From Candidatus Poseidoniaceae archaeon (lineage in GTDB: Archaea > Thermoplasmatota > Poseidoniia > Poseidoniales > Poseidoniaceae), in assembly GCA_965662895.1 (NCBI GenBank), contig CBFIJH010000007.1, forward strand, positions 1 through 64,000: a stretch of 64,000 nt of DNA. Direction: 5' to 3'. Of this stretch, positions 8,852-55,587 are shown in pieces. The stretch's first letter is position 1. The number at the start of each line of letters is the position of its first letter. The notes below the pieces were generated by a model. That model saw nothing but the letters and a program-made list of their open reading frames with translations. It was not told where the DNA came from and did not search any database. Both the position numbers and the translations under genes were made by a program.

Positions 8852-11008
8852 CTAGAAACTAATGTTAAACTGGAACATCGCCATACCAATCGTCAACAAT
8901 CCTCCAACAATGTATCCAAGGATTGCACCGCCATTCAACAGTGGTAGTCCGGCTTGCGCCTGACCTTTGCCAACATAATACATGAGTACCGAATAACCGA
9001 TGAGGCTTCCGACGAGTGTTGCCATCGCCATAACAAAGCCATCATCGCCACCAACGTATTGAAGCGTGGAAAGGACAAGCATTCCTGGGAAGATGACATC
9101 ACCAAGACCCATGAGCATAGCATCGTTGCTCTTGGCAACCACTCGTTCTTGAGCAACAACCGGTTTGGCAACATCTGGCGTTTCAGGAGATGCATGAACG
9201 GTAGCACGCTCTGTACGCATTGAGTAATCCGAGTCTTGAGGTGCAACGAGCAAAATCGGTAAATTGAGATTCATCATCGTATCCGCCAGATCGAGCATGT
9301 GTTTGGATTTGTAAACAGCCCATGCATCGTACACCGCTGCAGCAATCATGAACACCATAATCAACGTTGGAACAAATGAAACGCCGAGCATGACGATGAC
9401 GCCACTTCCGACAAGAATTCCAACTGTATTGACGACGTACCACTCACTGTGAACATAGAGCAAAACCATGAGCAAGATGCTGAGGAGGATGCCAATGATG
9501 GTTGGAATGTCTTCAATGACAAGGCCTCCGACCAAAAACATCGATGCATCAACAATGCCCGAGGACGTGGAGAAGGATGCATTGACAAAGTCCCCAGTTT
9601 CGGTCACATAGGCTTGGATAATGACCGTCGAGTAAAGGTGAATGGTCTCGTTTTCAATGTCTGCTTGGGTTTCACCAAATGCAACGGAAACGTCCTCTCC
9701 CTCAGGCACATCGATGATTAATCGTTGGACCATGGATGCTCCATACAGCAGACGAGCATCTTTGTCTGTCGTAATCAACAGTTCAGTGTATCCGGTCGCG
9801 TCAATATCTGTCAATCGAACATCACGAATGCTGTTTGCAAAATTCTGAATGCTGACTTTGCTTTCTTCAGCGAACATTGGAACTTCATTCGGAGAATATG
9901 ACCAAGCGAGAACATCACCGCCTTCGGTACCCAGCACAATCAGTTGTTCACCATTCGTGGAATCTTGCATCGGTGTTTCTGCAACATTCGAATATCCGAT
10001 GTCAAGGGATGTGAACCCATCTTCAGAGGTTGCATTGTACGCAAGTTGAGCGTCATCATAGATCTCCTCATCGCCAGGGGAAGGGGCAACATTGCTGGTT
10101 TCTTCGAGTTCGATGATTGCTGCCATGTTTTTGCTGACCATCAGAACGTGGTCGTCACTCATGCGTTCAATCTCGATAAGTTGTGAAACTTGGATTTCTT
10201 GTGGAAGAGACCATGTTGCTTGGTAGAACATTTGGTTGGGGAAATCTGTATTGGTGATGAATCTATGAAGCCGATCTGCATAATCGATTACATAAACGGA
10301 GTCTTCCGTTTCAACAGCAACTGCACATCCACTCTCCAAAATAGAAGTGATTTCGCCTTGCTCATCGGATTCCAAGCATGTGTATGTTGATTCTAGGGTT
10401 CCATCCGATAATGCAAGTGTGTGGATAAATTCTCCATTGGTGATGGTTACGGTATTCGGGCCGGGTGCGACAATCAATTGTTGAAATTCTGACGTTATGT
10501 TGCCATGTTGGACATCCGTTTCCCAGATTGGTTCTTCCTCTCCCCATTGCATGAGTCGGATTGTGTTCACAAGCTCCCCATCGCGTTCAATTCTTTGATT
10601 TTCAAGATACTGATCCATTCCGATTTCGGTCAGATATTCGGTATTTTTGTCCTGGGTTGAATCGTACTCGAACGGTGTAACGCTATCATCGACGAGAACC
10701 TGATGAGCAAGGGGAACGTTGGCATAGAGGAGTGCAATGAAGAGAATCCCCATGATTCCGTATTTGATGATCCATTCTTTCTTGTATTTTGCAAGCATGA
10801 GGATGGCTGCAGTAAAAATGAAGATCATAATTAACTCAAGACCAATATAGCGCAATTGTGAGGCTCCAGCCTCACCAAATGCTTGCAGTCCAGCCTTATC
10901 GTACCAGGGTCGGATGTACATGGCGAGGAAGATGGTTGCGACAAACATCGCTGCCATACCAATCATCGAAGGGAGTTGTCGACGAAAGTCCTCCGCTACG
11001 TCGCTCAT
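8852..11008 (-). CDS. Presenilin-family (A22) intramembrane aspartyl protease with large inserted soluble domain
   Basis: YDAWAVYKSKHM (YD), MGLGD (GxGD) and QAGLPLLN (PAL-like) motifs; ~390-aa hydrophilic insert after third TM. Confidence 0.9.
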   Translation of the reverse strand: MSDVAEDFRRQLPSMIGMAAMFVATIFLAMYIRPWYDKAGLQAFGEAGASQLRYIGLELIMIFIFTAAILMLAKYKKEWIIKYGIMGILFIALLYANVPLAHQVLVDDSVTPFEYDSTQDKNTEYLTEIGMDQYLENQRIERDGELVNTIRLMQWGEEEPIWETDVQHGNITSEFQQLIVAPGPNTVTITNGEFIHTLALSDGTLESTYTCLESDEQGEITSILESGCAVAVETEDSVYVIDYADRLHRFITNTDFPNQMFYQATWSLPQEIQVSQLIEIERMSDDHVLMVSKNMAAIIELEETSNVAPSPGDEEIYDDAQLAYNATSEDGFTSLDIGYSNVAETPMQDSTNGEQLIVLGTEGGDVLAWSYSPNEVPMFAEESKVSIQNFANSIRDVRLTDIDATGYTELLITTDKDARLLYGASMVQRLIIDVPEGEDVSVAFGETQADIENETIHLYSTVIIQAYVTETGDFVNASFSTSSGIVDASMFLVGGLVIEDIPTIIGILLSILLMVLLYVHSEWYVVNTVGILVGSGVIVMLGVSFVPTLIMVFMIAAAVYDAWAVYKSKHMLDLADTMMNLNLPILLVAPQDSDYSMRTERATVHASPETPDVAKPVVAQERVVAKSNDAMLMGLGDVIFPGMLVLSTLQYVGGDDGFVMAMATLVGSLIGYSVLMYYVGKGQAQAGLPLLNGGAILGYIVGGLLTIGMAMFQFNISF

Positions 11009-40539: not shown

Positions 40540-40620
40540 GAAGGCTACGATTCAATCCTCAGGCTTCACACCGGATTTTCATAACTCATGGTTTTAGTAC
40601 TCTCGGGACTTGGACTTGGT

Positions 40621-42846
40621 ATGTCCGGAGAAGATAACGAGGTATCGCTACGTGTTGCAAAAGCCATTCCTTCCGACGTCGGTCACGGCCGAGCTCGGAT
40701 TTCAGGCGACCACGGACTTGACCTCAAACCAGGCGACATTGTCGAAATCAAAGGCGAGAAGCGTTCAACAGCAGCAATCTATTGGCGCAGTCGACCAGAA
40801 GACGCCAAAATGGATATCGTCCGAATCGATGGTATTATTCGAAAAAATGCAGGCGTGAGCCTCGGCGATCGAGTCACCATCTCCAAATCGGAAGCAAAAG
40901 AGTGCAAGAAACTCACACTTTCCCCAGTGATGGCGAACAAGCAGAAGGTCAAATTTGGCCCCGGGATTGAGGGTTTCGCACGCCGTGGTCTCTCAAAACG
41001 TCCAGTCATGGCCGGTGATCGGATTTTCATTCCTGGGATGACACTCTTCGCTGAGGCTCTACCGTTTGCAGTGGTTCAAACCACACCAAAAGGCATCGTC
41101 AAAGTTACGAGCGATACGGACATTGTCATCAAAGACGAGGCCATCGATGACGAGGATGTTGGACAATCGGAAGGGATAACCTACGAAGACGTAGGTGGTA
41201 TCGGCCAACAACTCCAGAAAGTACGAGAGATGATTGAACTCCCACTTAAGCACCCAGAACTGTTCCGAAGACTGGGAATCGACCCACCGAAAGGTGTTCT
41301 TCTGCACGGGCCACCAGGCACCGGTAAGACCATGATTGCCAAAGCGGTTGCGACAGAAGTGAACGCTCACTTCAAATCCATTAATGGACCGGAAATCATA
41401 TCAAAATACTACGGTGAATCCGAGAAACAGTTGAGAGAAATTTTCGACGAAGCGAGTGAAAAAGCTCCTGCAATTATCTTCATTGATGAGATTGATTCAA
41501 TCTGTCCAAAACGCGAAGATGTCAGTGGCGAAGTGGAGCGACGTGTCGTTGCTCAGATGCTCACACTTCTTGACGGTATGCAGGGTAGAGACAACGTTGT
41601 TGTCATCGGTGCGACAAACCGACGTGACGCTCTTGACCCTGCACTGCGTCGAGGCGGTCGTTTCGATCGTGAAATCGAGATTGGTGTCCCTGACCGCGAC
41701 GGTCGAAAAGAAATCATGGAAGTTCACACCCGTCAAATGCCAATCGCTGACGACTTTGAAGTCAATTGGGTACTCGACAACACGTACGGGTTCGTAGGAG
41801 CTGATCTTGCTGCACTTGTACGAGAAGCTGCGATGAAGGCTTTGCGCAGGTACTTGCCTGAAATCGATCTTGATGAGGAGACCATTCCACCAGAAGTCCT
41901 CGAAAAGATGGAAGTACGAATGACCGACTTCAGAGATGCTATCAAGGACATCGAACCATCAGCTCTTCGTGAGATTTACGTTGAGGTTCCCGAAATTGCA
42001 TGGAATGAGGTTGGTGGACTTGACGAAGTTAAAGAGCGACTCAAGGAGTCCGTCGAATGGCCGCTCACCAAACCAGAAGTGTTTGAACATTTCAACATCA
42101 AACCTCCACGAGGAATTGTTTTGTTTGGCGCACCTGGTACTGGAAAAACGCTCCTTGCAAAAGCCATAGCGAATGAAGCTCAAGCCAACTTCATTTCCAT
42201 AAAAGGTCCTGAAATGATTTCCAAATGGGTTGGTGAATCCGAACGAGGTATTCGCGAAATCTTCAAGAAAGCGAAGCAGTCTTCACCTTCCATCATTTTC
42301 CTTGATGAATTTGAATCCATTGCGAGCATGCGAAATGCTTCGAACGGTGAAGGAAGCGATGTTGGCAACAGGGTTGTGAATCAACTGCTTGCGAGTATGG
42401 ATGGCGTCGAATCCCTCGACGGTGTCATTGTTGTCGCTGCGACCAATCGTCCGGAAATGATCGACCCCGCTCTGCTAAGAAGCGGACGATTTGAACGTGT
42501 TCTTCACGTTCCTCCGCCCGATGCACCTGCTCGCGAGGCTATTTTTGAGATTCATTCGAGTGGCATGCCGTTATCGAAGTTCTCCATCAAAGGTCTTCTT
42601 TCGAGTATGGAAGGTTTCACTGGAGCCGATATCGAGGCAGTTTGCAGGGAAGCTGCGCTCATTGCCATGCGCGAGGGCAAGAAGCGTGTCGCAAAGAAAC
42701 ACTTCGATGAGGCTGTAACACGTGTACGACCAACCGTTACGCCAGAGATGCTCGAATACTACCAGAAAATGGAGACACGGTTGACGTCTGGCTTGTCAAA
42801 CATCAAGCGCACGCGTGACTACAGTTACGGCATGGAAACAATGTGA
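40621..42846 (+). CDS. cdc48: CDC48/VAT AAA+ ATPase
   Basis: N domain plus two AAA modules: [13 protein letters not shown] and [16 protein letters not shown] regions. Confidence 0.97.
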
Positions 42847-42898
42847 GCACGGAAACGGTCAAGTTCTTCCTTTGCCTAGGATTTTCAAGGCGAGTCGA

Positions 42899-43141
42899 AT
42901 GACATCCAGTTTCGGTCAGGAAATGCTTGGACGAACAGTCCAAGACAAGAAAGGTAAGGAGCTTGGAAAACTTACCGATCTTGTTGTTGATGTTTCAAAC
43001 GGTGGAATTTCTGAACTTCTTGTCAAATGCTCAGAAAACATCGATACGAGTCGTCTTCCATTTCAGATGAAAGACGGTGCAGTTGCAATTCCTTCCAACG
43101 AGGTGGCCTCGTTTGGGCACGTGATTTCGCTCAAAATCTGA
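42899..43141 (+). CDS. PRC-barrel domain protein
   Basis: MLGRTVQDKKGKELGKLTDLVVD...G.ISELLV pattern; 80 aa. Confidence 0.85.
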   Translation: MTSSFGQEMLGRTVQDKKGKELGKLTDLVVDVSNGGISELLVKCSENIDTSRLPFQMKDGAVAIPSNEVASFGHVISLKI

Positions 43142-43227
43142 TGAGCATTTTCGCAACAGAGTTGGACAACCTTCTAAACCGATGTGAAACCGTGTGTGTA
43201 TGAACGGTGTACTAGGGAGGTGTGGAG

Positions 43228-44844
43228 ATGGCGGCCGAACGTAACAGAAATTTCAGGCGAATTGGGCTTCAACTCGCATTCTGGGCCGTTCTTGGAATCC
43301 TCCTCTTTACCATTCTTCAAAATTTCATCAACATTAGTCAAACCAATCAATTGTCAGCATACGATGACGATTGGAACGACATGTCTGCGTTTCGCGAAGA
43401 TATCAATGCCATGGGAGTTGAAACAAAATCTCTGGTAAGCAGCCCGCTTCTATTGGCCGACATTGAAGATCCACGAAATACCACGTTTGTCATCGCAGGT
43501 GTTGAACGAGATACGCTTTCACTTCCACAATTCGATGAAGATGGATTCATCACAATCGCCACTGAGGATGGTTATTCACCCTCAGAGGTTGATGCAATTG
43601 TTGAGTTTGTTGATAATGGTGGTACAGTCATTGTTCTGGAAGACTTTGGTTATGCTGGAAGCATCGGAGAAGCTTACGGTGTTCGCTATTCTGGATACCA
43701 GTTGTACGATACAAACTATGTCGCTGAATTGGATTATAACTACATCTGGATGTGTGTGCAGGCAAGTCCCTGCGGTATGAACGGAACGGTACTTGACCCC
43801 ACAACAATAGAAGAACACGAACGCTGGTCTTCTGAGGTTGGCGCTCATCCATGTTCCGAGCTTGACGGCCAATCCATGACCCTTGGGGAAGCAGGGGTCT
43901 GTTCGCACCACTGGGTTCGAAGCGCAGGTGAACTGGGACGTATTGAGTACAATGCAACCTACACAATGCTGCTCAACAACGTCACTGGTCTTGAAATCGT
44001 TCCTGGAGTCCGTGGCGCCCTCAATGATGTGAATATCCGTTCTGTAACAAGCAATCAGGCTACCGTTGACGTCAATGGCGATGGTGAACTTTGGGTGAGC
44101 AACGAACAAACAAGTGAAACACCTGATCTGTGGGGGCAATTCAACCTCTCGATTGAAGCGTGCGCCTCCACAAATTGCGATCCGGATGAAGGGGGACGCG
44201 TCTTCTTTGTCGCAGATGGTAGCGCACTGATAAACGCAATCTACGATTTTGAAGGATTCAATGCAGGAAAATACGGTGAAACAGGTAAACTCATTCCGGC
44301 AAACGACAACCGAAAGTGGGCCCTCGACGTTATCGCAGAATCCTTGATGAGCACGCTTGAAGGCGAAGAGGGCCAACCAGCAGAAAACGCCCTAGTGATA
44401 TTTGACGAAAGCCGCCACCCACAGAACGCCTTACTTGCAGATTCTTACAACACGGTTTACTTCCTCTTGGTCTATTTCACCGGTGAAGGGCTTGCAATGC
44501 TTGCACTGTTTGTTGTTCTCTTTATCACGTTTGAAGCAGTTCTTCTCAAAAAGCGAGACCCGGAGCCATGGCGTCATGTTTTCAGCATCATCTATTACGG
44601 ATTTGGGGATGCAAATCGTTACACCTATTATGCCAAAACGGAGAAAATACGGCAGGTATTTTTGTCAAAAGTTCGTAATCAAAACGGTTTGACCGTTGAA
44701 GAATTTCATGCCATGCCTGCCAAAGAACTCGTTGGCCTTATCCAAGATCCAGTGTTGGCGAAGTTTGCCATCGAACCTGGAAAATATTCGTTGGAACAAT
44801 CGGTTGCACTCGTGAAACGAATCAAAGCATGGGGGCGAAGGTGA
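43228..44844 (+). CDS. DUF4350-like membrane-anchored extracytoplasmic protein
   Basis: N-terminal TM, SAYDDDWNDMSAF, FVDNGGTVIVLEDFG, GRVFFVADGSALIN, IFDESRH, second TM. Confidence 0.7.
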   Translation: MAAERNRNFRRIGLQLAFWAVLGILLFTILQNFINISQTNQLSAYDDDWNDMSAFREDINAMGVETKSLVSSPLLLADIEDPRNTTFVIAGVERDTLSLPQFDEDGFITIATEDGYSPSEVDAIVEFVDNGGTVIVLEDFGYAGSIGEAYGVRYSGYQLYDTNYVAELDYNYIWMCVQASPCGMNGTVLDPTTIEEHERWSSEVGAHPCSELDGQSMTLGEAGVCSHHWVRSAGELGRIEYNATYTMLLNNVTGLEIVPGVRGALNDVNIRSVTSNQATVDVNGDGELWVSNEQTSETPDLWGQFNLSIEACASTNCDPDEGGRVFFVADGSALINAIYDFEGFNAGKYGETGKLIPANDNRKWALDVIAESLMSTLEGEEGQPAENALVIFDESRHPQNALLADSYNTVYFLLVYFTGEGLAMLALFVVLFITFEAVLLKKRDPEPWRHVFSIIYYGFGDANRYTYYAKTEKIRQVFLSKVRNQNGLTVEEFHAMPAKELVGLIQDPVLAKFAIEPGKYSLEQSVALVKRIKAWGRR

Positions 44845-44849
44845 GTCAC

Positions 44850-46103
44850 ATGTGGACGCGAAAAGCATCGTTTACTTTTACTGGTGGTATTGCACTCATT
44901 CTCATTGGGATGATGATTTCCAACAACCAAATGATGATTCTTGGTTTAACACTCATCACCTTCATTGTCGTAAATTCATGGGTTTCCGGCCATGGCGATA
45001 TCGAAGTACAACGCACACTTTCTGCAGATAACTTGTACAAAGGTGATGATTTGTACGTTGAGTTGCTTGTCACCAACCGATCGAATCGCCGAACCCAACT
45101 CTTGGATGTTTACGACAACATTCCTCACGAAATGAAGTTGCGTAGTGGATTGAATCAAATGCGGCTCAATTTGCGTCCCGGAGAGAGTGCTCGAATCCGA
45201 TACGTGTTGCGTTGTCCACTTCGTGGACATTACTCGATTGGTCCTGTTTCTCTTCGAGTTCGCAACACCTTCAATCTCGGAGTTGAGGACATGTACGTTG
45301 ACCATCATTCCGATATCGTCATCTTCCCTCAAATCAAAGAAGTCGAGGAAGCGTTCCTTCGCTCACGTACACCTAAAATGTACACTGGAGCAACAACGCT
45401 TCGAACACCAGGACAAGGGTCAGAATTTTATTCGCTGAGAGAATACGTACCTGGTGATCCGTTCAAAAACATCAACTGGAAGGCCTTTGCTCGAACTGGT
45501 GACTTAATGGTCAATGAAAAATGTCGAGATGCGGTAACTGATCTTTACATCCTTCTTGATTCCAGAGACGTTGCCCGCATCGGAACCGTTCTCAAGAATC
45601 CACTCGAGATGGGAACGGTAAGCGCTGCAAGTCTTGCAGCATTTTTCCTCAAGCGACGAGATAGCGTCGCTCTCGGAATCTATGGCGACGGTCTCGCTTA
45701 TTTGCCACCCGATACCGGTGACAAGCAGTATTTCAAAATCCTAAGTTCACTTGCTGGCGTAAAGCCAGAGGGAAGTATGCCACTGCAAGCCGTTACCAAT
45801 TCGCTCAGTGGACGTTTCAGCCGAGGTAGTCCGGTGTTTGTTATTTCATCCTGTGAAGGGGATGGAACGGTTCCTGCAGCAGTACGTGATCTTGTTGGTC
45901 GAGGTCATGAAGTAACTGTCCTATCGCCATCAAGCATTGATTTTGAACGACTTGTTTCTCGGATACCGCGTATGTCCTACGAAGTCCTGAAGTTGGAACG
46001 ACAAAACCGTTTGACGACGCTTGCAGGTTCTGGAGCGCAGGTCATTGATTGGATGCCAGATATGGATCTATCACAAGCGATTATGCAGGTAAGGGGGTAT
46101 TAG
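44850..46103 (+). CDS. DUF58 domain protein
   Basis: Two N-terminal TMs, RGHYSIGP, EFYSLREYVPGDPFKNINWKAFAR, vWA-like C-terminus. Confidence 0.92.
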   Translation: MWTRKASFTFTGGIALILIGMMISNNQMMILGLTLITFIVVNSWVSGHGDIEVQRTLSADNLYKGDDLYVELLVTNRSNRRTQLLDVYDNIPHEMKLRSGLNQMRLNLRPGESARIRYVLRCPLRGHYSIGPVSLRVRNTFNLGVEDMYVDHHSDIVIFPQIKEVEEAFLRSRTPKMYTGATTLRTPGQGSEFYSLREYVPGDPFKNINWKAFARTGDLMVNEKCRDAVTDLYILLDSRDVARIGTVLKNPLEMGTVSAASLAAFFLKRRDSVALGIYGDGLAYLPPDTGDKQYFKILSSLAGVKPEGSMPLQAVTNSLSGRFSRGSPVFVISSCEGDGTVPAAVRDLVGRGHEVTVLSPSSIDFERLVSRIPRMSYEVLKLERQNRLTTLAGSGAQVIDWMPDMDLSQAIMQVRGY

Positions 46104-47306
46104 ATGGCTGGTGAAGTTGATCCACAAAGCGATGTTTCCCTCATGGGAGGACGCACCCGAACTCTGCACCTCAAAACATTGCGCAAGCAATGGCAAATCA
46201 TCACGCTCCAAGTCGTCTCAACGATTGCACTGGTCTGGATGTATTTGGAAGTCGTCTCCACCTATGTTGTTGGAAGTATTGACCACACCATGTTGTTTGA
46301 ATCATTGGAAACAGCCGTCGGTGAGGTGCCAATTGGAGATTGGTTAATCGGTTCAGGCCGCACGGGACTCGCTCGATTCTATGTTCCTATCGTGTTGGGA
46401 CTTGGACTTGGTGGTTCAATGGCGCTTCTTGCTTTCCAATCACCACGCGTTCAACAACGAATCAAACTTGGATTTATCGTTACACTCATGCTTCTCCTGA
46501 TTGGACGACTCGTCCTTACGTGGATTCCTTCAATGCTCTTTTCATTGGACCTACGTGCACCGACAGAGAGCGAACTGAAGACTCTTGAATGGCCGCTTTT
46601 GATGATTCTTTCATTGATGATTTTGTTCATCTATCTGTTGCCCGTCATCATGGGAACCCGTGGAATTTGGGGCCTCTCACGCCGCTCCATCGGATGGGCG
46701 ATTGGATTCACCTTGCTCTTCTTGGGTATCCATGCTATCCTGACCTTCCCTCTCATCAAATCACAACTCGGAGATTGGGGCTCGAATTTGATATCGTTGG
46801 AATCACAAGTGAGTGATCCGACCGTCGGCCTTTTTGGATTCGACTTAGTGACTCCTGAACAATTTTCACTCATCTTGATTGCAGTGCTGATTATGGTGTT
46901 TCAAGAATCAGGATTCGGTGTCATCCGCTATCTCGAGTACGCGTATCGCCTTCCAGAGTCTTGCAAGAGAGATCCTGAATACGTACGACAAATGGACAAC
47001 GTCCTCAACGGTCATCTCCGTCACACAGCTGGTTTTCTAACCATCACAGGCATCGTGACGACGGTTGCACTCGGCTTCCATAGTGTCCTTCTCGAGGTGG
47101 TTCGAACCTCAACAGGCAGTCAATGGGCGGCGCAAGTATCCGAGTCGATTGAACTGTCGTTGACGTATGGGTTGGTCATTTCTGCACTTCTTTTCCTCAG
47201 TCTTATTGCTCTACTGAGGTTCTTTGTTCCTTGGCAGAGGGTATGGGGTCTTATCGAATCCTTTAGCAACAATGCACCCGAACCTGTGAAAGAAAAAGAA
47301 TTCTAA
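46104..47306 (+). CDS. Multi-pass membrane protein, function unknown
   Basis: About 8 hydrophobic segments; follows DUF58 gene directly with AGGGGGT SD. Confidence 0.8.
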   Translation: MAGEVDPQSDVSLMGGRTRTLHLKTLRKQWQIITLQVVSTIALVWMYLEVVSTYVVGSIDHTMLFESLETAVGEVPIGDWLIGSGRTGLARFYVPIVLGLGLGGSMALLAFQSPRVQQRIKLGFIVTLMLLLIGRLVLTWIPSMLFSLDLRAPTESELKTLEWPLLMILSLMILFIYLLPVIMGTRGIWGLSRRSIGWAIGFTLLFLGIHAILTFPLIKSQLGDWGSNLISLESQVSDPTVGLFGFDLVTPEQFSLILIAVLIMVFQESGFGVIRYLEYAYRLPESCKRDPEYVRQMDNVLNGHLRHTAGFLTITGIVTTVALGFHSVLLEVVRTSTGSQWAAQVSESIELSLTYGLVISALLFLSLIALLRFFVPWQRVWGLIESFSNNAPEPVKEKEF

Positions 47307-47543
47307 TCACGCTCGTGTTCGAATCGACTGAATCGTTCTTCCGAACAACTCGTTGAGAATCAACATACTCAATACGAGTCCAATTGACGAAAGCCATTGA
47401 TACAATGTTGAATCGATGTTTGACCAAGCATACTGATTGAGAAAAACAAATCCTATGATGGACAAAAGGAAGACCAACTTTTCAAGAAAAATTGGGTAAG
47501 AGGAACCTTTCGATTCATTGCGCATGAGAAGTGTTTCAACCAT
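47307..47543 (-). CDS. Small two-TM membrane protein
   Basis: 78 aa, two hydrophobic helices, GGTGGA SD, 9-bp gap from coiled-coil gene. Confidence 0.7.
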   Translation of the reverse strand: MVETLLMRNESKGSSYPIFLEKLVFLLSIIGFVFLNQYAWSNIDSTLYQWLSSIGLVLSMLILNELFGRTIQSIRTRA

Positions 47544-47552
47544 GCTTCCACC

Positions 47553-50500
47553 TCAGAAATCCAATTCAGAAAGTTGGTCATGCAAGGCTTCGAGTCGGGG
47601 GTCTGGTTTTGCTTCTTCTGCGTCAGGCACCCGTAATTGACGTTCCGCATCCAATCGAGCCAACTCGGCTTCAAGGTCGGCACGATCTTCTTGCATTGGC
47701 GTGGCTTCGACTTGTTCGCCTTCTGTTTCAAGAGGTTCTGAATCAGAGGGTGCTGGCATCGCTTCCCATTCCTCAGAAAGTTCTGAAACAGTTGGTTCTG
47801 AATCCAGCGACACGCTTTCCTCGACCACCAAGGTAGGTTGAATGGTTTCCATCATATCATCCATGACTGGGGTCCGTTGACCGACGGGTATTGAAGTGCG
47901 TTCAAACGGTAAGAAACCGTCTCGTTGGAAATCCCACATCGCTCCACGTGGTATTCCCCGAGTTAATCCAGAGGCATCGATTTGCGTCAACAGTTCTTCA
48001 AGAACCTGTGCTGTCTGTTCAAGCGCAATTGCTTCGCCAGCATCGCGTTGGTCAGCTTCGAGATAAATGTCATCGAGTGCAACACGTATGAGTCGTCGCG
48101 TTTCAACAGCAACACTTGGTAACGCTTCAGGTCGCATGCAATTCATTCGAAGCGCCTCGATTTCTTCAGGTGGAGCACCAAGGTCTCCAAGTTGATCAAG
48201 GACGTTTCGCATGCGTCGCAACATGGTAATTGAACGATCATAATCTTCCAGGATTCCCTCCAAATCGAGAATCAGGTGACCAACGGTCTCACCGAGTTGG
48301 TTTTCCAGTCGCTGTTGTACCGACCATCGTGCCAATCCTCGAACTGCGCCTGCAGTCTGTGGAACTTGGCGTTCGAGCAACGTCATCACCTCACTGCTGA
48401 GCAAATGACGAGGTGTAGCAGCAATATGGTCGACTGTGGACTGAACGACCTGTAGGGCTCGTTCAACAGCACGATCGAGAAGGACAACCGAATAACCAAG
48501 CGTACGTGCATGTTCAAGACGCTCAAGTACGGGTCCCAAACCTCGGAAGGTCGCATCATCATTGAGCAATGCTTGAGCAAGAGGCTCTTCTGACAATCTT
48601 GCACGCAGACGTTCCGCTTCGGCAATGTCTGAAACGGCTTCTTCATGCGCTTCAGTGAGAGCCTCAGCGCGAGCGATGAGCCCAGAAAGTTCAGTTTCTG
48701 CATTGCCTCGGCGAGCTCCAAGATTGCCAAGTTCGGTAAGCAACTCTTTCCGCTCACCCATTAACTCCCGCAGTTCAGCATGGAGTTGCATTCGCCGTGC
48801 CTCATCTTCTGCGAGACGTTGACGTTCTTCCTCAGCCCGTTGACGACTTGACAAGGTTTCTGCTTCAATTTGGTCCAACCGTGCCTGTGCAGTTCGGATC
48901 TTTTCTTCTGAAGCATTGCTCTTTGATTGGGCGCTTGCTTGTCGTTCCCTCAGGGTTGCAACTTGTTCCTCAAGTGTTCGCAATCGTCGTTCCTCAAGCT
49001 CGATTTGTTCTCGAATTGACGACAACTGTTGTGCGTTGGACTCTAAGTCTGCACGAGTTGTTGCTTCCTGATTTGACAGCGCTTCAAGTTCATCTCGAAG
49101 TGCAGCACTGCTTTGCGTATCTCCAAGCGCCTTTGCTAATTCTGTTGCACGCTCACTGAGTTGGTGCTCCAGTTCACTCACCCTACGTAGCAAACGATCA
49201 GCACGTGCTTCAGCTTGCTCCATCCGTGTTCTTGATTCAGAAACCGTCACTTGTACTCGGTTGAGTTCGTCGTTTTTCGACTGAATGGCAACGGTTTGGT
49301 CTCCAGAAGACTGTTTGACTTCCTCGAGCCGAACCATTGCTTCAGTTCGCTCTTTTTCAGCATCCTGAAGTTGAGTGGTTAAGCTCGCATTTGCGCGCAT
49401 TAATGAGTCAGCTCGACGCTCGGATTCCTCCAGCCTTCGTCGTAATCCTGAATCAACCGCTGCAAGCGGAGCAGAGTTTGGTAGCGGTTGAGATGTTTCT
49501 TGCCCACCGACATGAATGCGTAGTTTTGCTCGAACGGCTCGAACATCATCAAGACCAATTTCAAAACCATACATGCTCATCAATCGATGCATCATAGAAG
49601 TTCTGCGCTTTTCGGAACGAGTACGTACAGTGGACAGTTGTTCTACAAATTGTTTGAGTGTAAATTCGGAAACATCACCGGTTGAAGCGGAAATCATCGT
49701 CCCAGAGGCCAGTCGATGCAACTTCAACACACGCTTGCTTTCCGTCAATCCAAGCATTGCTTCCTCGAACGATTGTCCGTTCGCTGCCAGTGCTACTGGA
49801 AGACCGTTGTTCAATGCAAGTGAGACCGCCTTGTCGCTGACACCTGCTTTGAGATGACCAGTAACTCGATCTTCAAGTGCTGCAGAAAGCATAGACATGA
49901 CGGCATCTGAGCCGCCCTTTCCCTCTCGAAGAATGAAACCGTCAGGCAGTGATGCTTCACCCTCGGCATATGTTCCTATTTCTCCATCAAGTTTGGCGGC
50001 TACATCGGACAACAAGCGTGCATGATTCGCATCAAGCTCCGTCCATATCGCTAACACGATGGTGCTGCTTGAGGCGATAAGTAAAGACGCATCTCCCATA
50101 TTCAACGATGCGTAACCTTGACCATCTCCTCCGAGCGTCTCATGCTGTGCATTCATTGCATCCGAGAGCGAGGCAACAGTTGCAGCGAGGTCTTCAGCAG
50201 ATCCTGGTAACTCACCCATGCTATCGATGACAATTCCTTGATCAGCGGCGAGACCTCCACGTACGTGCTCGTAATCAGAGAGCGCTTGAAGAACTGCAGA
50301 TAAGTTTCGGGCGAAGAGGCGATCTGTCAATGCGCCTCCAGAACCGAGTCCCTGTGCATCTGCTTGGAACTCAAAGGCTTCTGGTAGAAGTTTTGCAAGC
50401 TCAGCCAAGCCATGCATTGAGCATGTTGAGGCAACCAAACGATGTTGGTTTTTCTCAGCCTCTTCAAGCGCTTCTCGAGCGTCAGCGCCGCCGAGTAGTT

Positions 50501-50684
50501 TGGTTGCGCTCGTCCCTTCACAAATCCAACCAACAATCCTTCCAGCACGAACCAATCGGTGTCCGAAGGGGGTTTTTCGTCGGCCAACCCATGTTGTGAT
50601 GTACCCATGTTCAAAAGGCTGGAGTCCTCCAGATGCAACATCCACTTCATCGTCGAATCGCTCAATATGTGGTAAATCAAACAT
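47553..50684 (-). CDS. Large protein: DUF2226-like, roadblock/LC7-like and DUF4388-like domains, long coiled coil, acidic tail
   Basis: Roadblock-like LQALSDYEHVRGGLAADQGIVIDS..AEDLAA..LG..LLIA..VLAIW..N; heptad-rich E/R/Q/L/A stretch ~aa 410-700; domain names are by-eye calls. Confidence 0.7.
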   Translation of the reverse strand: MFDLPHIERFDDEVDVASGGLQPFEHGYITTWVGRRKTPFGHRLVRAGRIVGWICEGTSATKLLGGADAREALEEAEKNQHRLVASTCSMHGLAELAKLLPEAFEFQADAQGLGSGGALTDRLFARNLSAVLQALSDYEHVRGGLAADQGIVIDSMGELPGSAEDLAATVASLSDAMNAQHETLGGDGQGYASLNMGDASLLIASSSTIVLAIWTELDANHARLLSDVAAKLDGEIGTYAEGEASLPDGFILREGKGGSDAVMSMLSAALEDRVTGHLKAGVSDKAVSLALNNGLPVALAANGQSFEEAMLGLTESKRVLKLHRLASGTMISASTGDVSEFTLKQFVEQLSTVRTRSEKRRTSMMHRLMSMYGFEIGLDDVRAVRAKLRIHVGGQETSQPLPNSAPLAAVDSGLRRRLEESERRADSLMRANASLTTQLQDAEKERTEAMVRLEEVKQSSGDQTVAIQSKNDELNRVQVTVSESRTRMEQAEARADRLLRRVSELEHQLSERATELAKALGDTQSSAALRDELEALSNQEATTRADLESNAQQLSSIREQIELEERRLRTLEEQVATLRERQASAQSKSNASEEKIRTAQARLDQIEAETLSSRQRAEEERQRLAEDEARRMQLHAELRELMGERKELLTELGNLGARRGNAETELSGLIARAEALTEAHEEAVSDIAEAERLRARLSEEPLAQALLNDDATFRGLGPVLERLEHARTLGYSVVLLDRAVERALQVVQSTVDHIAATPRHLLSSEVMTLLERQVPQTAGAVRGLARWSVQQRLENQLGETVGHLILDLEGILEDYDRSITMLRRMRNVLDQLGDLGAPPEEIEALRMNCMRPEALPSVAVETRRLIRVALDDIYLEADQRDAGEAIALEQTAQVLEELLTQIDASGLTRGIPRGAMWDFQRDGFLPFERTSIPVGQRTPVMDDMMETIQPTLVVEESVSLDSEPTVSELSEEWEAMPAPSDSEPLETEGEQVEATPMQEDRADLEAELARLDAERQLRVPDAEEAKPDPRLEALHDQLSELDF

Positions 50685-51025
50685 TATATCTCCTCATTTT
50701 GTTTTGAATTCCAATCGTTACGCAGCCGTTCAAGTTCGTAACGCCAGGTGCCCATTTTCCCATCTTTGCCAGAGAGGTGGACGAAAACATCGTAGTCAAA
50801 CCGATCAAAAAGGGTCAATCGTCGCCCTTCACTCCAAACTTCAAACAGCGTGCCGAGTTTGAGTTCTTCTGCAACTGCACAACATTCTGCCCATTCGCGT
50901 CGTTGTTCCCCAGCAGTCTCGGGCCATTTCTTCGTGGTCTGAACAACACCGCCAAACTGATCCATCACGCGGACGTGATTCACACCATTGAGTTCGCAAA
51001 GTTGAGAAAACAACGTCTCCAACAT
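50684..51025 (-). CDS. Roadblock/LC7 (MglB-like) protein, divergent
   Basis: LCELNGVNHVRVMDQFGGVV, AEELKLGTL..EG, GTWRYELER; TAATG overlap with next gene; GAGGT SD. Confidence 0.65.
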   Translation of the reverse strand: MLETLFSQLCELNGVNHVRVMDQFGGVVQTTKKWPETAGEQRREWAECCAVAEELKLGTLFEVWSEGRRLTLFDRFDYDVFVHLSGKDGKMGTWRYELERLRNDWNSKQNEEI

Positions 51026-51111
51026 CTTAGCCCAAACCTCTTCACAGCAACGTACCATTCAAGAACTTTGCCGAAACTCTTCCCCCGTAGGGGGATTTGG
51101 TGATGAAAATC

Positions 51112-51281
51112 AAATTTCCAACTGCAAAATTTCAATCATTGCTGCGCGGAGGCGTTAGCACCGTAGATTTTCCGCGCATTACTGGCATCGAGAAAGCCCT
51201 TACGTAAATAAAAAATCCAATTAAAAAATTTAAAATCTAATTGCAATTTTGAAATACAATCAAAACCCAATCGGAGGCGTT
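51112..51281. repeat. Diverged duplicated AT-rich element, each copy followed by CGGAGGCGTT
   Basis: aaatttccaactgcaaaatttcaatcattgc (51112-51142), aaaatccaattaaaaaatttaaaatctaattgc (51212-51244); cggaggcgtt at 51147 and 51272. Confidence 0.6.
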
Positions 51282-51307: not shown

Positions 51308-52303
51308 ATGGCCGAGCCTATCCAGAGTCCCTTCCAAGCACCTGCTTGCGATGTGTGCGGCAAGGATGCTGTCGTCGAACAGGCCTATTCTGGGCGTATT
51401 TTATGCGGGCATCACCTCGAAAAGTCCATTCGAAAGAAAGTTGGCAAAGAATTGCGTAAGCAACTTGTTCTGGACAAATCGCAACCGACGACGGTTTTTG
51501 TTGCGATTTCTGGTGGGAAAGATTCAGCAGTTCTTCTGACGCTTCTCGTTGATCTCATCGGGATGCGTCGAGATGTCCGTATTGTTGCTGGTTGCGTTGA
51601 TGAAGGAATCGATGGCTATCGCCCACCATCTCTCCAGTGTGCCATCGATCTTTGTGAAACTCTAGATGTTGAATTCATTTCCACCAGTTACGAAGATCTC
51701 GATTTTCACCAGATGGACGAAGTAGTCAAGCGATTACCAATGATTTCAGAGAAGAAAGATGGCGCATCGACGATGCCTTGCTCGTATTGTGGAGTTTTCC
51801 GTCGGCAAGGTATCAATGCGCTTGCTCAACAAGTCGGCGCTGATGTGGTTGCGCTCGGTCACAATTTGGATGATATGGCCCAAACAGTTCTCATGAATAT
51901 GACAAATGGAGATATTGAGCGAACGTTACGTCTAGCGCCACACACCGATGCTCCAGTCAACGGGCTGCCACCAAGGATTGTTCCTTTACGTTGGATTCCC
52001 GAGCAAGAGATTCACCTGCTTGCGATGCACAAACAACTCCCGCTTCATCATGAAGAGTGTCCTTACGCACAAGGAGCCCTACGATGGCGATACCGGGACA
52101 TTGTCGCACAACTTGAGCAGGATGTACCTGGGACGCGCCACAGTTTGGTCCGGATGTCGGACAACATCAAGACCGTTGCCCGTCAAGAGGTTCCACCCGT
52201 CCAAACGCATCCAACGAAATGCGAACGGTGTGGTTCACCAACATCAGGATCAACGTGCAAAGCTTGCGACATGCGAGATCTTCTCGATGTCGCCTCAGAG
52301 TAG
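51308..52303 (+). CDS. ncsA: tRNA 2-thiolation protein, TIGR00269/NcsA (TtuA/Ctu1) family
   Basis: CDVC..C.HH, SGGKDS PP-loop, CSYCGVFRR, GHNLDD, ECPY, CERC..CKAC. Confidence 0.9.
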   Translation: MAEPIQSPFQAPACDVCGKDAVVEQAYSGRILCGHHLEKSIRKKVGKELRKQLVLDKSQPTTVFVAISGGKDSAVLLTLLVDLIGMRRDVRIVAGCVDEGIDGYRPPSLQCAIDLCETLDVEFISTSYEDLDFHQMDEVVKRLPMISEKKDGASTMPCSYCGVFRRQGINALAQQVGADVVALGHNLDDMAQTVLMNMTNGDIERTLRLAPHTDAPVNGLPPRIVPLRWIPEQEIHLLAMHKQLPLHHEECPYAQGALRWRYRDIVAQLEQDVPGTRHSLVRMSDNIKTVARQEVPPVQTHPTKCERCGSPTSGSTCKACDMRDLLDVASE

Positions 52304-52771
52304 ATTGTGTATCAATTCGTCCAAATCTTGCGGACGTTGGCAATAATGGCATCGTAGGGTGAGAGGATCTGTTTTGGTAACTTTTAGGCGATGCGGCAAA
52401 GGTTCCCTGGAATTTTGTGTTATGCAGTTGGAGAATGTGCATCGAACAACGTTGCGAACCTCTTCACCCAAGTTCACCGTCAATTTCTCAGCTACGGTGT
52501 ATGCTCGAATAATGGCGATACTGGACTCTGGGGAGACCAATGCTAAGCGATCAAGTTCAGATTGGGTCAATTCCCGATCTTCGACCTTGATGATGTCCTT
52601 CGCTCCCATCTTTTTCGATGGGACGTTCATAACCAAAGAAACGGGGACCGATGTATCGCTTGTCAGATTCAGCAGTTCAAGCACTTTGAGAGCTTGCCCT
52701 GAAGGGATGTGGTCAATGACGGTTCCATTCTTGATTGCAGTTACTCGGCGCATGTTGTGTTCTTCCACCAT
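52295..52771 (-). CDS. pyrI: Aspartate carbamoyltransferase regulatory subunit
   Basis: IKNGTVIDHIP, KDIIKVE, CTFSNC..CHYC zinc site. Confidence 0.96.
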   Translation of the reverse strand: MVEEHNMRRVTAIKNGTVIDHIPSGQALKVLELLNLTSDTSVPVSLVMNVPSKKMGAKDIIKVEDRELTQSELDRLALVSPESSIAIIRAYTVAEKLTVNLGEEVRNVVRCTFSNCITQNSREPLPHRLKVTKTDPLTLRCHYCQRPQDLDELIHNLL

Positions 52772-53715
52772 CAGGCTTCACCTCCAGCGATTTCTGCAGG
52801 AACTTCGATATTGAGCAGTCTGCAGAGCAAAGCCATTCGGGCGACGACACCGTTGAATGCTTGCTCAAAATATCGTGCATGGCGGGTCTTGTCGACACTT
52901 GGATGAATCTCATCCACACGTGGTAGTGGATGGAGGATGACCATCCCAGACTTTGCGTTATCAAGGTCTCGTGCATGGAGTTTGTAAGCCCCAGCAACTT
53001 TAGCGTATTCATCCTCATCAGCAAATCGTTCCTTTTGAATACGCGTCATGTAGACGACATCGGCTTGGTTAATGTTGCCAAGAAGATCCTCCGTTTCTGT
53101 TACATCAGCGCCATGTTCTCGCAAATCTTCAACGATTTCAACAGGCATGCGAAGCAGATCAGGGGATGCGAAAATCAGCCGACAGCCAAATCGAACCAAT
53201 GCATGGGAAAGGCTGTGAACGGTCCGACCATAACGTAGATCGCCGGCGAGAATAACGGTTAGACCTTCGAGCGTACCATGCGATTGTTGAATCGTAAACA
53301 AATCAAGCATGGTTTGGGTTGGATGATGTCCGGCACCGTCTCCACCATTGAGAATAGGAACGCTTGCAGCATCTTGGGCATAGCGTGCAGCACCTTGTCG
53401 GGGATGACGCATTGCGATGATATCGGTGTACCCGTCAACCATCTGAATGGTATCGAACAATGTCTCTCCCTTGACGACAGAGGAGGTCTTCACATCACCA
53501 AGATTGACGACATCTCCGCCCAAGCGCTTCATTGCAGTTTCGAAGGACATTCGTGTCCGAGTGCTGGGTTCAAAGAAGAGGTTGCCAAGAATTTTCCCTT
53601 GCAAGAGCGGAAGATAGGTTTCGCCTCGAGCAACCGGTAGCAAGCGTTCAGCATCGGCAAGAATGCTGTGTATGTCTTCATTCGTTAAGTCGTCCATCGT
53701 GATGAGTCCTTTCAT
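52771..53715 (-). CDS. pyrB: Aspartate carbamoyltransferase catalytic subunit
   Basis: FFEPSTRT, HPTQ, GDLRYGRTVHS, TRIQKER, HPLPR; start moved to 53715. Confidence 0.97.
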   Translation of the reverse strand: MKGLITMDDLTNEDIHSILADAERLLPVARGETYLPLLQGKILGNLFFEPSTRTRMSFETAMKRLGGDVVNLGDVKTSSVVKGETLFDTIQMVDGYTDIIAMRHPRQGAARYAQDAASVPILNGGDGAGHHPTQTMLDLFTIQQSHGTLEGLTVILAGDLRYGRTVHSLSHALVRFGCRLIFASPDLLRMPVEIVEDLREHGADVTETEDLLGNINQADVVYMTRIQKERFADEDEYAKVAGAYKLHARDLDNAKSGMVILHPLPRVDEIHPSVDKTRHARYFEQAFNGVVARMALLCRLLNIEVPAEIAGGEA

Positions 53716-53823
53716 TGAATGTCCCCTTCTATGCCAACCATCCAAGCACACCCTTGAACATTGTTGCCAGCCACTATGCAAAGAGTCGGTGGTTTCATCA
53801 TCCAAGCCCTTTCTGGTTGATTC

Positions 53824-55587
53824 ATGCTCTGGGGCGATGTCGATGAGGCGATACAAGCCGAGCGTTTGGTTCGAATTCAGAGAATCGAGCGATTGAGTAC
53901 CATTTGCGCCTTATTTTGTCTCAGTGGAGCGGTTTGGCTGGCTTGGCCAGTACTCAAGGATGCATTTGTTGGTGATGCGAGCCTCCTTACTGGGCTTGGA
54001 ATGCCAGTCCTTGTTCTACTTTGGGGCATTGTCATACAGGACCTCATTCTCGATGATCCTCGAGCTCGCACACGAATCGGAGCGGCTTCAAGCATCATCT
54101 GGCCAGTATTTCTTGTGTTTGCCTTGCGGTCCTATTCAACAAATCCGACCGATCTTCTCGCAATGGTTCTCTTCGCAGCATTGGGTTTTGCAACGTACCA
54201 ATCGTCAGCAAACACGCTCCGCGGTGGAATCGATGTTATGCGGTTCCGAGCGATGATGACGGGTCTTGGTGCACTAACAGTGCTTGGTGTGCTTGTAGGC
54301 GACCGAGCAGGTCGAACGTGGATTGTTGAGCCTGAAGATTGGGCTCACCCTATCTTGTGCCTTGTGATACTTCTTCACGTGGGATATCTTTGGATTGCGG
54401 GCGATGATATGCGAGAAGAACGGAAAGCCTTCCGCCAAGAACTCGATATCATTGAGAATCGATTGCTCGTTTTGCGATCTGAAGGAGCCGCTGTTGATCA
54501 GGCCAGTAGCCTTGTCATGACGGCAAAGGAGGAAGGCCACATCGACCCGTCATTCGGTATGCGTCTCCTTCGTGAGGCAACCGAAGACATAGAGCGTTCG
54601 TTATCCCTTGCTACGGACGTCGATGTTGTGCGAGGTGAAGCCCTTCTCGTCATTCAGCACGCTGAAGAATTGGCACCTCTCGCCAAGCGTCCACGTAAGT
54701 CTTACGAAATGGGAGAACGAGAAGCTTCTCTAGGTTCTCTGCGGGAAGCGGAAGGACTCTTTCGTCAAGCGAAGCGAAGAGCGCAAGAAATCGTTACCTG
54801 GTGGGAGCAAGCAGAAGAAGCCATCCAAACAGCGGACGAACTACTCACCGGCAAATCCGGCGCAACCATCGACAATTTGCGTCAAATCATTCGCGACGCA
54901 CGAAAGCAACTTGACCGGGAGGCACCAAAGAAGGCATTCGAACTTGCATGTGTGATCCCGATTCAATTGCAAGCAGATGGTGATGCTCGTGAGCGTGCAG
55001 TTGAAGTTTTGAGCGATGCAGCAAAAGCACTCAAAGCAACAGATGGATTCGACACCAATGAACTTGAAAAGCGCCTTGAGCAGGCAGAATCAGCGCTCGA
55101 AGCGGGTGATACAGGTCAATCGATTGGCCTTGCAGAGGGGGTTCTTCGCGTGATTCAAATTGAACGCGAATCCATGGAGACGGTCCGTCGCGCACTCCGC
55201 CAACGCAAGAAGATCACAGAGCGATTTGAACATTTTACTGATGCCGAAGAATGGATGGCTCGATTTAAACAGGTTCAGAACGCAGCGGATGAGCGGGAAT
55301 GGAGTCATGCGGCAACGTTGCTTGAACGTTTAACCATCGACCTCGATGCACTCGGTAGCGAACAAGACGAAGCACAGGCATTGCTTGATTTCGTTCGCCA
55401 AGAATGGGCAGTCTTGCGAAACCAATGCAATGCTTCGAGCATACCGGTTTCGGATGAGGATATGAGACAAACTGAGGCGGCAGTTTCCCTCGCAGAAGAA
55501 TATCTCACGAAAGGCCAGGTTGAAGCATCCCTCAAGCAACTTGGTCAAGCCGATGCTTCGATGGAACGACTTCGAAGGCGAGTTTAA
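53824..55587 (+). CDS. Membrane protein (about 6 TM) with long all-helical C-terminal region
   Basis: Hydrophobic N-terminal ~195 aa, then ~390 aa of A/E/R/L helical repeats. Confidence 0.8.
   Translation: MLWGDVDEAIQAERLVRIQRIERLSTICALFCLSGAVWLAWPVLKDAFVGDASLLTGLGMPVLVLLWGIVIQDLILDDPRARTRIGAASSIIWPVFLVFALRSYSTNPTDLLAMVLFAALGFATYQSSANTLRGGIDVMRFRAMMTGLGALTVLGVLVGDRAGRTWIVEPEDWAHPILCLVILLHVGYLWIAGDDMREERKAFRQELDIIENRLLVLRSEGAAVDQASSLVMTAKEEGHIDPSFGMRLLREATEDIERSLSLATDVDVVRGEALLVIQHAEELAPLAKRPRKSYEMGEREASLGSLREAEGLFRQAKRRAQEIVTWWEQAEEAIQTADELLTGKSGATIDNLRQIIRDARKQLDREAPKKAFELACVIPIQLQADGDARERAVEVLSDAAKALKATDGFDTNELEKRLEQAESALEAGDTGQSIGLAEGVLRVIQIERESMETVRRALRQRKKITERFEHFTDAEEWMARFKQVQNAADEREWSHAATLLERLTIDLDALGSEQDEAQALLDFVRQEWAVLRNQCNASSIPVSDEDMRQTEAAVSLAEEYLTKGQVEASLKQLGQADASMERLRRRV

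Follow-up and report, generated by a model that had tools for sequence, protein, structure and literature searches.

A conserved three-gene operon of Poseidoniales combines two roadblock units with a coiled-coil protein and probably encodes an undescribed scaffold

Proteins of the roadblock/LC7 fold have been studied mostly as partners of small GTPases, as in the MglA-MglB and Rag-Ragulator systems, with the dynein light chain as an exception. The subject here is a three-gene module on the minus strand at positions 47307..51025 of a 64,000-nt stretch of DNA (the window), taken from contig CBFIJH010000007.1 of assembly GCA_965662895.1, a Candidatus Poseidoniaceae archaeon. The module encodes a free roadblock protein, a large protein with a second roadblock domain and a long coiled coil, and a small protein with two hydrophobic segments. 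Because its host genomes lack the small GTPases that roadblock proteins usually regulate, the operon is probably an undescribed scaffold, and a search of the literature found no description of it. Roadblock proteins apart from a cognate GTPase are not without precedent; in the survey of Wuichet and Sogaard-Andersen (PMC4316618), 328 of 749 MglB homologues were uncoupled to MglA and, by that account, none of these had been characterised by 2014. The same source cites Koonin and Aravind (2000) for a general link between the roadblock superfamily and regulation of nucleoside triphosphatases (NTPases).

By sequence comparison, the nearest prokaryotic relatives are MglB and MglC of Myxococcus xanthus. 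Like the free roadblock of the module, these are single-domain proteins of ~115-160 aa; they dimerise, and their partners at the membrane or the cell pole are large coiled-coil or scaffold proteins. Both rank among the top hits of the small protein by sequence and by fold (MglC 7ct3, E 1.2e-6; 6izw and 3t1s). MglB differs in that it works on the Ras-like GTPase MglA, and no such GTPase was found with the module. Moreover, the literature searched holds no description of a roadblock fused into a 1,000-aa coiled-coil protein. In design, the nearest analogies would be dynein LC7 and Ragulator (LAMTOR1-5), the latter being a membrane-anchored scaffold of roadblock heterodimers. A Ragulator-like design would need two roadblock units that heterodimerise and bind a membrane anchor; the module possesses two such units and a candidate anchor, and both its roadblocks have LAMTOR2/3 (MP1/p14) and LAMTOR4/5 among their fold matches. 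Ragulator nevertheless differs in being anchored by a lipidated wrapping peptide rather than by a two-segment membrane protein, in having no coiled coil, and in docking Rag GTPases. The likeness is best taken as one of design, with homology limited to the shared roadblock fold.

Three further groups bear comparison. The best-scoring solved relatives of both roadblock parts are stand-alone roadblock proteins of Asgard and other archaea (7yh1, 9jue, 9jq8, 7f8m, 7f8f), which are of the same size and, in one account, are discussed together with small GTPases (PMC10933270). Unlike these single-domain proteins, one roadblock copy of the module forms part of a larger protein with several domains, and no GTPase came to light for the module. 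The internal roadblock has its best sequence match in CvnB of Streptomyces (cvnB5, 3leq, E 0.001), whose conservons are described as membrane-associated multi-protein operons (PMC4316618). Conservons, however, also encode a kinase-like sensor, a DUF742 protein and the GTPase CvnD, none of which occurs in the module operon. Finally, genes for PATAN proteins (PatA_N, DUF4388) are reported near MglB genes (PMC4316618), and PATAN proteins form the nearest clusters to residues 241-400 of the large protein in an atlas of ESM features (0.86), while the Pfam model matched none of 32 orthologues.

The gene layout is compact. Three minus-strand open reading frames (ORFs) occupy 50684-51058, 47553-50684 (1043 aa) and 47307-47543 (78 aa). 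The stop codon of the small roadblock gene (50684-50686) shares one base with the start of the large gene (TAATG), and 9 bp separate the large gene from the 78-aa gene. The start of the small gene is placed at the ATG at 51025, which gives a 113-aa protein (50687..51025), because all 32 aligned orthologues begin at that methionine. This tight coupling had been described in a first-pass annotation, made from the sequence alone, and every element of it is present. The window's own three proteins match no Pfam family at E<=1, so that tests had to be made at the level of the family, with alignments of 32 orthologues of the small protein and of the N-terminus of the large one.

Those tests place a roadblock fold in both proteins. 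For the free protein, 16 of the 32 orthologues match Pfam Robl_LC7 (PF03259) at E<=1 (best 2.5e-7), and the family profile finds solved roadblocks, led by 7f8m (1.1e-9) and 7yh1 (1.2e-8), with MglB at ~0.03. Its AlphaFold2 model is confident (mean predicted local distance difference test, pLDDT, 92.2) and has the alpha-beta-beta-alpha-beta-beta-beta-alpha order of elements that defines the fold; all leading Foldseek matches are roadblock proteins, with template modelling (TM) scores of 0.70-0.77. The second unit lies in the large protein, of which residues 1-400 were modelled as three domains (pLDDT 82.6, predicted TM score 0.61). The middle domain, D2 (aa 117-240, 49965..50336), has 6 of 32 orthologues that match Robl_LC7, and its residues 125-237 agree with roadblock proteins in both fold and profile. 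MglB-MglA complexes (6izw, 6h5b, 3t12) appear among the fold matches. Thus both roadblock segments proposed at the outset, the 113-aa first gene product and a stretch near residues 125-232, were recovered by structure search. A weak Robl_LC7 match elsewhere on the contig falls within an arginase gene and was discarded.

No partner GTPase came to light, in keeping with the first-pass view of a module without one. In the home genome, which is 92% complete, the Ras, Arf and Gtr1/RagA models give nothing above cut-off, and a genome-wide scan for P-loop and NKxD motifs returns only translation-type GTPases, MeaB and non-GTPases. Across 151 genomes of the order Poseidoniales, one holds a convincing Ras match (G144, E 6e-33, in a 294-aa frame); the other 19 Ras matches are weak and, with the exception of one 77-aa frame, lie in frames of 370-680 aa. 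The G144 match (G144:C7:14637-15146) is located away from the module, in an assembly with 2% contamination.

The module itself is widespread in the order. The first 400 residues of the large protein are present in 96 of the 151 genomes, always in single copy and in a frame of ~1,020-1,100 aa; with the home genome (G000) left aside, the counts for the three families are 72 of 74 (f1), 2 of 2 (f2) and 21 of 74 (f3). Three of the 55 misses (G112, G114, G141) are assembly gaps, since in these genomes a flanking gene sits at a contig end or the flanks lie on separate contigs. The small gene adjoins the large one in 50 of 50 loci, home locus included, as judged by the small-protein profile. Among 20 long loci compared closely (L031-L050), a family hidden Markov model finds the gene of the two-segment protein in 18, directly after the large gene in 17; of the remainder, the contig of L041 stops within the large gene and L047 contains unread bases. 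In five of five module-negative genomes examined, from four genera, all three genes are gone and the 400-aa protein gene and the TtuA-like gene that normally flank them lie ~140-450 bp apart. The three genes are therefore syntenic across the order, as the first-pass reading required of relatives, and jointly absent where absent: they form an operon that is inherited and lost as a unit. It has been found only in marine group II archaea, and the 13,548 ORFs of the home genome contain no paralogue of any of its parts.

A few loci depart from this arrangement. In L042 (G004:C6), a locus of the small third family, the two-segment gene follows at a distance of 1.2 kb, with a 461-aa ORF (9620-11005) inserted in between; this ORF has many repeats of the D-x-D-G-D type and a hydrophobic C-terminal stretch. 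In L048 (G003:C1, 6800-9975), from a single-contig genome, the large gene is split into frames of 947 and 111 aa that overlap by 4 nt; one TGA falls within the C-domain match. Either the tail is truly split off or the sequence contains an error.

Beyond its roadblock, the large protein is built of parts whose conservation is uneven. The coiled coil (aa 401-689, 48618..49484) shows heptad periodicity above the 99th percentile of shuffles over residues ~401-694 and a composition of 67% E/Q/R/K/A/L, in agreement with the ~300-aa coiled coil first proposed. It is followed by a helical C-terminal domain (aa 690-945, 47850..48617) that is the most conserved portion of the protein, with a mean column identity of 70% vs 53% for the N-terminus, and an f1-f3 identity of 0.53 vs 0.27-0.35 for the other parts. 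The first-pass domain map had seen a helical domain here, yet it overlooked that this domain, and not the N-terminal ones, is the best conserved. The domain has no Pfam match, and its profile retrieves 40 proteins among 1.84 billion, all belonging to its own family: ten full-length (1,020-1,089 aa, with the domain at ~685-955) and thirty pieces of 51-737 aa. In a sample of the phylum it occurs in all 41 f1 genomes and in 8 of 22 from f3, and none of the 237 genomes from other Thermoplasmatota families has it. A likeness to FliS in the PDB (E 0.004 over 94 columns) was rejected as generic to helical bundles, and Pfam and NCBIfam scans of the C-domain and the N-terminus returned scattered sub-threshold matches only. 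The protein ends in an acidic low-complexity linker (aa 946-1000; 31% D+E, 0% K+R), as the predicted acidic tail had implied, and a helical tail (aa 1001-1043), together at 47556..47849; conservation is 0.36-0.40 in the linker vs 0.50-0.62 in the tail.

The two remaining N-terminal domains are harder to place. D1 (aa 1-116, 50337..50684) is beta-rich with two helices and begins with an invariant MFxLP (pLDDT 83-90 over aa 1-100); D3 (aa 241-400, 49485..49964) is modelled as an alpha/beta domain followed by a long helix at 358-385. The first-pass annotation had named these a DUF2226-like domain (~aa 1-105) and a DUF4388/PATAN-like domain (~245-345), and at the level of Pfam neither name held: the models for DUF2226 (PF09987) and DUF4388 (PF14332) match 0 of 32 orthologous N-termini at E<=1 and nothing at the module locus in 151 Thermoplasmatota genomes, PF14332 has no match over its cut-off anywhere in those genomes, and the only DUF2226 match in the home genome falls in the ThrRS ORF, outside the module. 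NCBIfam offers nothing for D1 or D3. In the ESM-feature atlas, which rates scores below 0.9 as leads only, the nearest clusters to D1 are unnamed archaeal ones (0.90), with a cluster in which 47% of members carry DUF2226 at rank 6 (0.86). A DUF2226/PATAN-like identity for D1 and a PATAN-like one for D3 are thus leads only. Comparison of D1 with D3 by hhalign detects no relation (probability 0.4%), and word-indexed database searches with the two profiles returned 41 and 7 matches, respectively, all fragments of the module's own family.

The third protein (47307..47543) has hydrophobic segments at residues 16-39 and 49-68, which agrees with the two-segment membrane protein first described. A motif, YP-x-[WFL]-[LIM]-E-[RK], is conserved at its N-terminus, before the first segment, and is taken as cytoplasmic.

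Taken together, these observations are compatible with a reading, held at a probability of roughly 0.45, in which the three genes encode one cytoplasmic, membrane-associated, Poseidoniales-specific scaffold complex that works without a Ras-like GTPase. In such a complex, the large protein would dimerise through its coiled coil of ~290 residues, and its internal roadblock would pair with the free one to form a flat binding platform, by analogy with MglB/MglC, LAMTOR2/3 and dynein LC7. The two alpha/beta domains, D1 and D3, would flank this platform as adaptors, and the roadblock pair would itself serve as an adaptor, as in Ragulator or dynein, rather than in the role of GTPase-activating protein (GAP). 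The C-domain or the tail could then bind the cytoplasmic N-terminal motif of the two-segment protein, or another fixed partner, so that the assembly would be held at the membrane. This picture stays close to the first-pass interpretation, of which the gene layout, both roadblock folds, the coiled coil, the two-segment protein, the synteny, the missing GTPase and the guess that the DNA is from Poseidoniales have all stood, and the Pfam-level DUF2226 and DUF4388/PATAN assignments have fallen; its suggestion of a role in polarity, cell shape or division is a guess. Several points weigh against the proposed scaffold. The free and internal roadblocks show a weak profile-profile likeness (hhalign probability 31%, E 5e-4), and their pairing is neither supported nor excluded by it. 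No known fold could be assigned to D1, D3 or the C-domain, which makes the word "adaptor" an assumption. Membrane insertion of the 78-aa protein is a prediction from hydropathy, and the GTPase search, in which Pfam models were run against an incomplete genome translated in six frames, would have let a very divergent or non-Ras NTPase partner escape.

Such an escape is the premise of a rather different explanation, in which the roadblock pair is a classical MglB-type regulator, acting as GAP or guanine nucleotide exchange factor for a GTPase or other NTPase that the searches missed. The fold matches to MglB-MglA complexes, the superfamily's link to NTPase regulation and the incompleteness of the home genome would all suit it. 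It is nonetheless very doubtful, given the lack of any Ras, Arf or Gtr1/RagA match or motif-scan candidate for a small GTPase in that genome, the imbalance between a convincing Ras protein in 1 of 151 genomes and the module in 96 of 151, and an operon that, in all 20 long loci, contains no NTPase gene; a cognate MglA/Ras-like GTPase was found neither nearby nor in the genome. Equally improbable is a scaffold for chromosome organisation or cell division, whether as an SMC-like arm protein or as a partner to the CDC48 and PRC-barrel genes close by. Residues 417-705 do match the NCBIfam models for SMC and Rad50 (best 8e-13), and a row of CDC48, PRC-barrel, DUF4350, DUF58 and unk400 genes is conserved beside the module. 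The SMC/Rad50 matches, however, cover arm positions only (model 687-963) and reach 47 bits against cut-offs of >=567 (567 for the model so aligned), and the large protein has no Walker A motif, so that membership of these families was rejected. Likewise, no MIT-domain protein was found as a partner for the helical tail, and the gene row is kept in all five module-negative genomes checked, which makes it independent of the module.

A further possibility is that the module serves as an accessory or positioning factor of a Tad-like type IV pilus, with PATAN-like D1 and D3 binding the ATPase or the platform protein and the coiled coil and anchor fixing the site. A 414-aa T2SSE ATPase is encoded in an operon with two T2SSF genes (G000:C8:30824-32065; L103:6825-8069), and its occurrence tracks that of the module in 22 of 22 genera: 96 genomes have both, 53 have neither and 2 have the ATPase only, both of the latter with contig breaks at the module locus. 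Its neighbours in that operon (L103:2199-6821) are three uncharacterised proteins of 653, 313 and 117 aa and the two T2SSF proteins. Archaellin fits the module less well than the T2SSE ATPase does, with 5 of 13 f3 genera discordant; a tight coupling to the archaellum was accordingly set aside, since genera g10, g11 and g19 have the module without an archaellin match and g17 and g22 have archaellin without the module. The proximity of D3 to PatA_N clusters also speaks for a pilus link, as does a preprint reporting that in Synechocystis the PATAN domain by itself binds PilB1 and PilC (bioRxiv 10.1101/2021.06.11.447907). The latter argument depends, however, on a PATAN domain call that is unproven, as the module gives no match to the Pfam PATAN model. 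The shared absence is similarly less telling than it appears. In a tree of TtuA and unk400, which does not include g13, g21 and g22, the sampled module-negative genera g12, g14, g15 and g17 group as a single clade (support 100/100), and the absence therefore amounts to about one loss event, which is weak evidence for a link; this lineage has small genomes of 1.3-1.6 Mb. Furthermore, the module and the Tad-like genes lie on different contigs and are not neighbours. A pilus accessory is consequently held to be unlikely. More speculative still, and rated as a long shot, is a combination of the two ideas, a GTPase-free Ragulator-like platform in which a heterodimer of the free and the fused roadblock would sit on the coiled coil, pinned to the membrane by the two-segment protein, and in which PATAN-like domains and the C-domain would fix where the Tad-like pilus, or some other complex of the envelope, is located.

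The region before the small gene is conserved as well, at 51058..51124 on the minus strand, with fixed spacing to the ATG at 51025. Within the 100 bases upstream of that start, three elements recur at fixed offsets across both main families, including the Poseidoniaceae: CAGTTGG (51118-51124, offset -99), a GC hairpin (stems 51090-51094 and 51082-51086, loop 51087-51089, at about -70 to -56), and TTCTTGAA (51058-51065, offset -40). In 49 non-redundant upstream regions, CA[GA]TTGG occurs at its offset in 41 and T[TC][CA]TTGAA in 35, and the pairing of the hairpin is kept with at least eight different stem sequences, that is, through compensatory changes. The combined pattern has a single occurrence in the home genome, Rfam gives no match for the region, and the loci of the small third family are without these elements. 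Still further upstream, the aligned Poseidoniaceae loci (five genus-level and two others) share another inverted repeat, CGCGGA ... TCCGCG. Taken singly, TTCTTGAAG is present in 96 copies genome-wide vs ~14 expected, mostly in coding sequence; about a dozen copies, found 16-49 nt before the ATG of a long ORF, are a hint of a general promoter-like element. The conserved region before the small gene may act as a promoter plus operator or form a structured leader.

The wider neighbourhood of ~15 kb (window 40588-47306 and 51308-53856; L031-L050) keeps its gene order across the order Poseidoniales. One flank is convergent with the module and carries CDC48, PRC-barrel, DUF4350 and DUF58 genes and the gene of the uncharacterised 400-aa protein, unk400; on the other, a TtuA-like gene diverges from the module, and PyrI and PyrB come after it. 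The genes on both flanks are of the housekeeping kind. All 20 long loci have the TtuA gene, and 19 of them have unk400. Both loci of genus g10 (L032, L034) possess ~4.7 kb of extra DNA between the two-segment gene and unk400.

Among the archaea of the surface ocean, Poseidoniales are one of the most abundant groups, and the module is a clear case of an orphan roadblock system within them: single-copy and order-wide, with two roadblock units, in an order with essentially no Ras-like GTPases. The C-domain, more conserved than the rest of the protein and found in no other lineage that was searched, is itself a structural unknown. As a defined set of proteins, the module allows one to ask what roadblock proteins do without a GTPase, and it provides a first handle on cell organisation in the uncultured Poseidoniales. 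To our knowledge, all described prokaryotic roadblock systems use a small-GTPase switch; if the long-shot reading of a pilus-placing platform were true, the module would be a polarity system made from roadblock parts without one.

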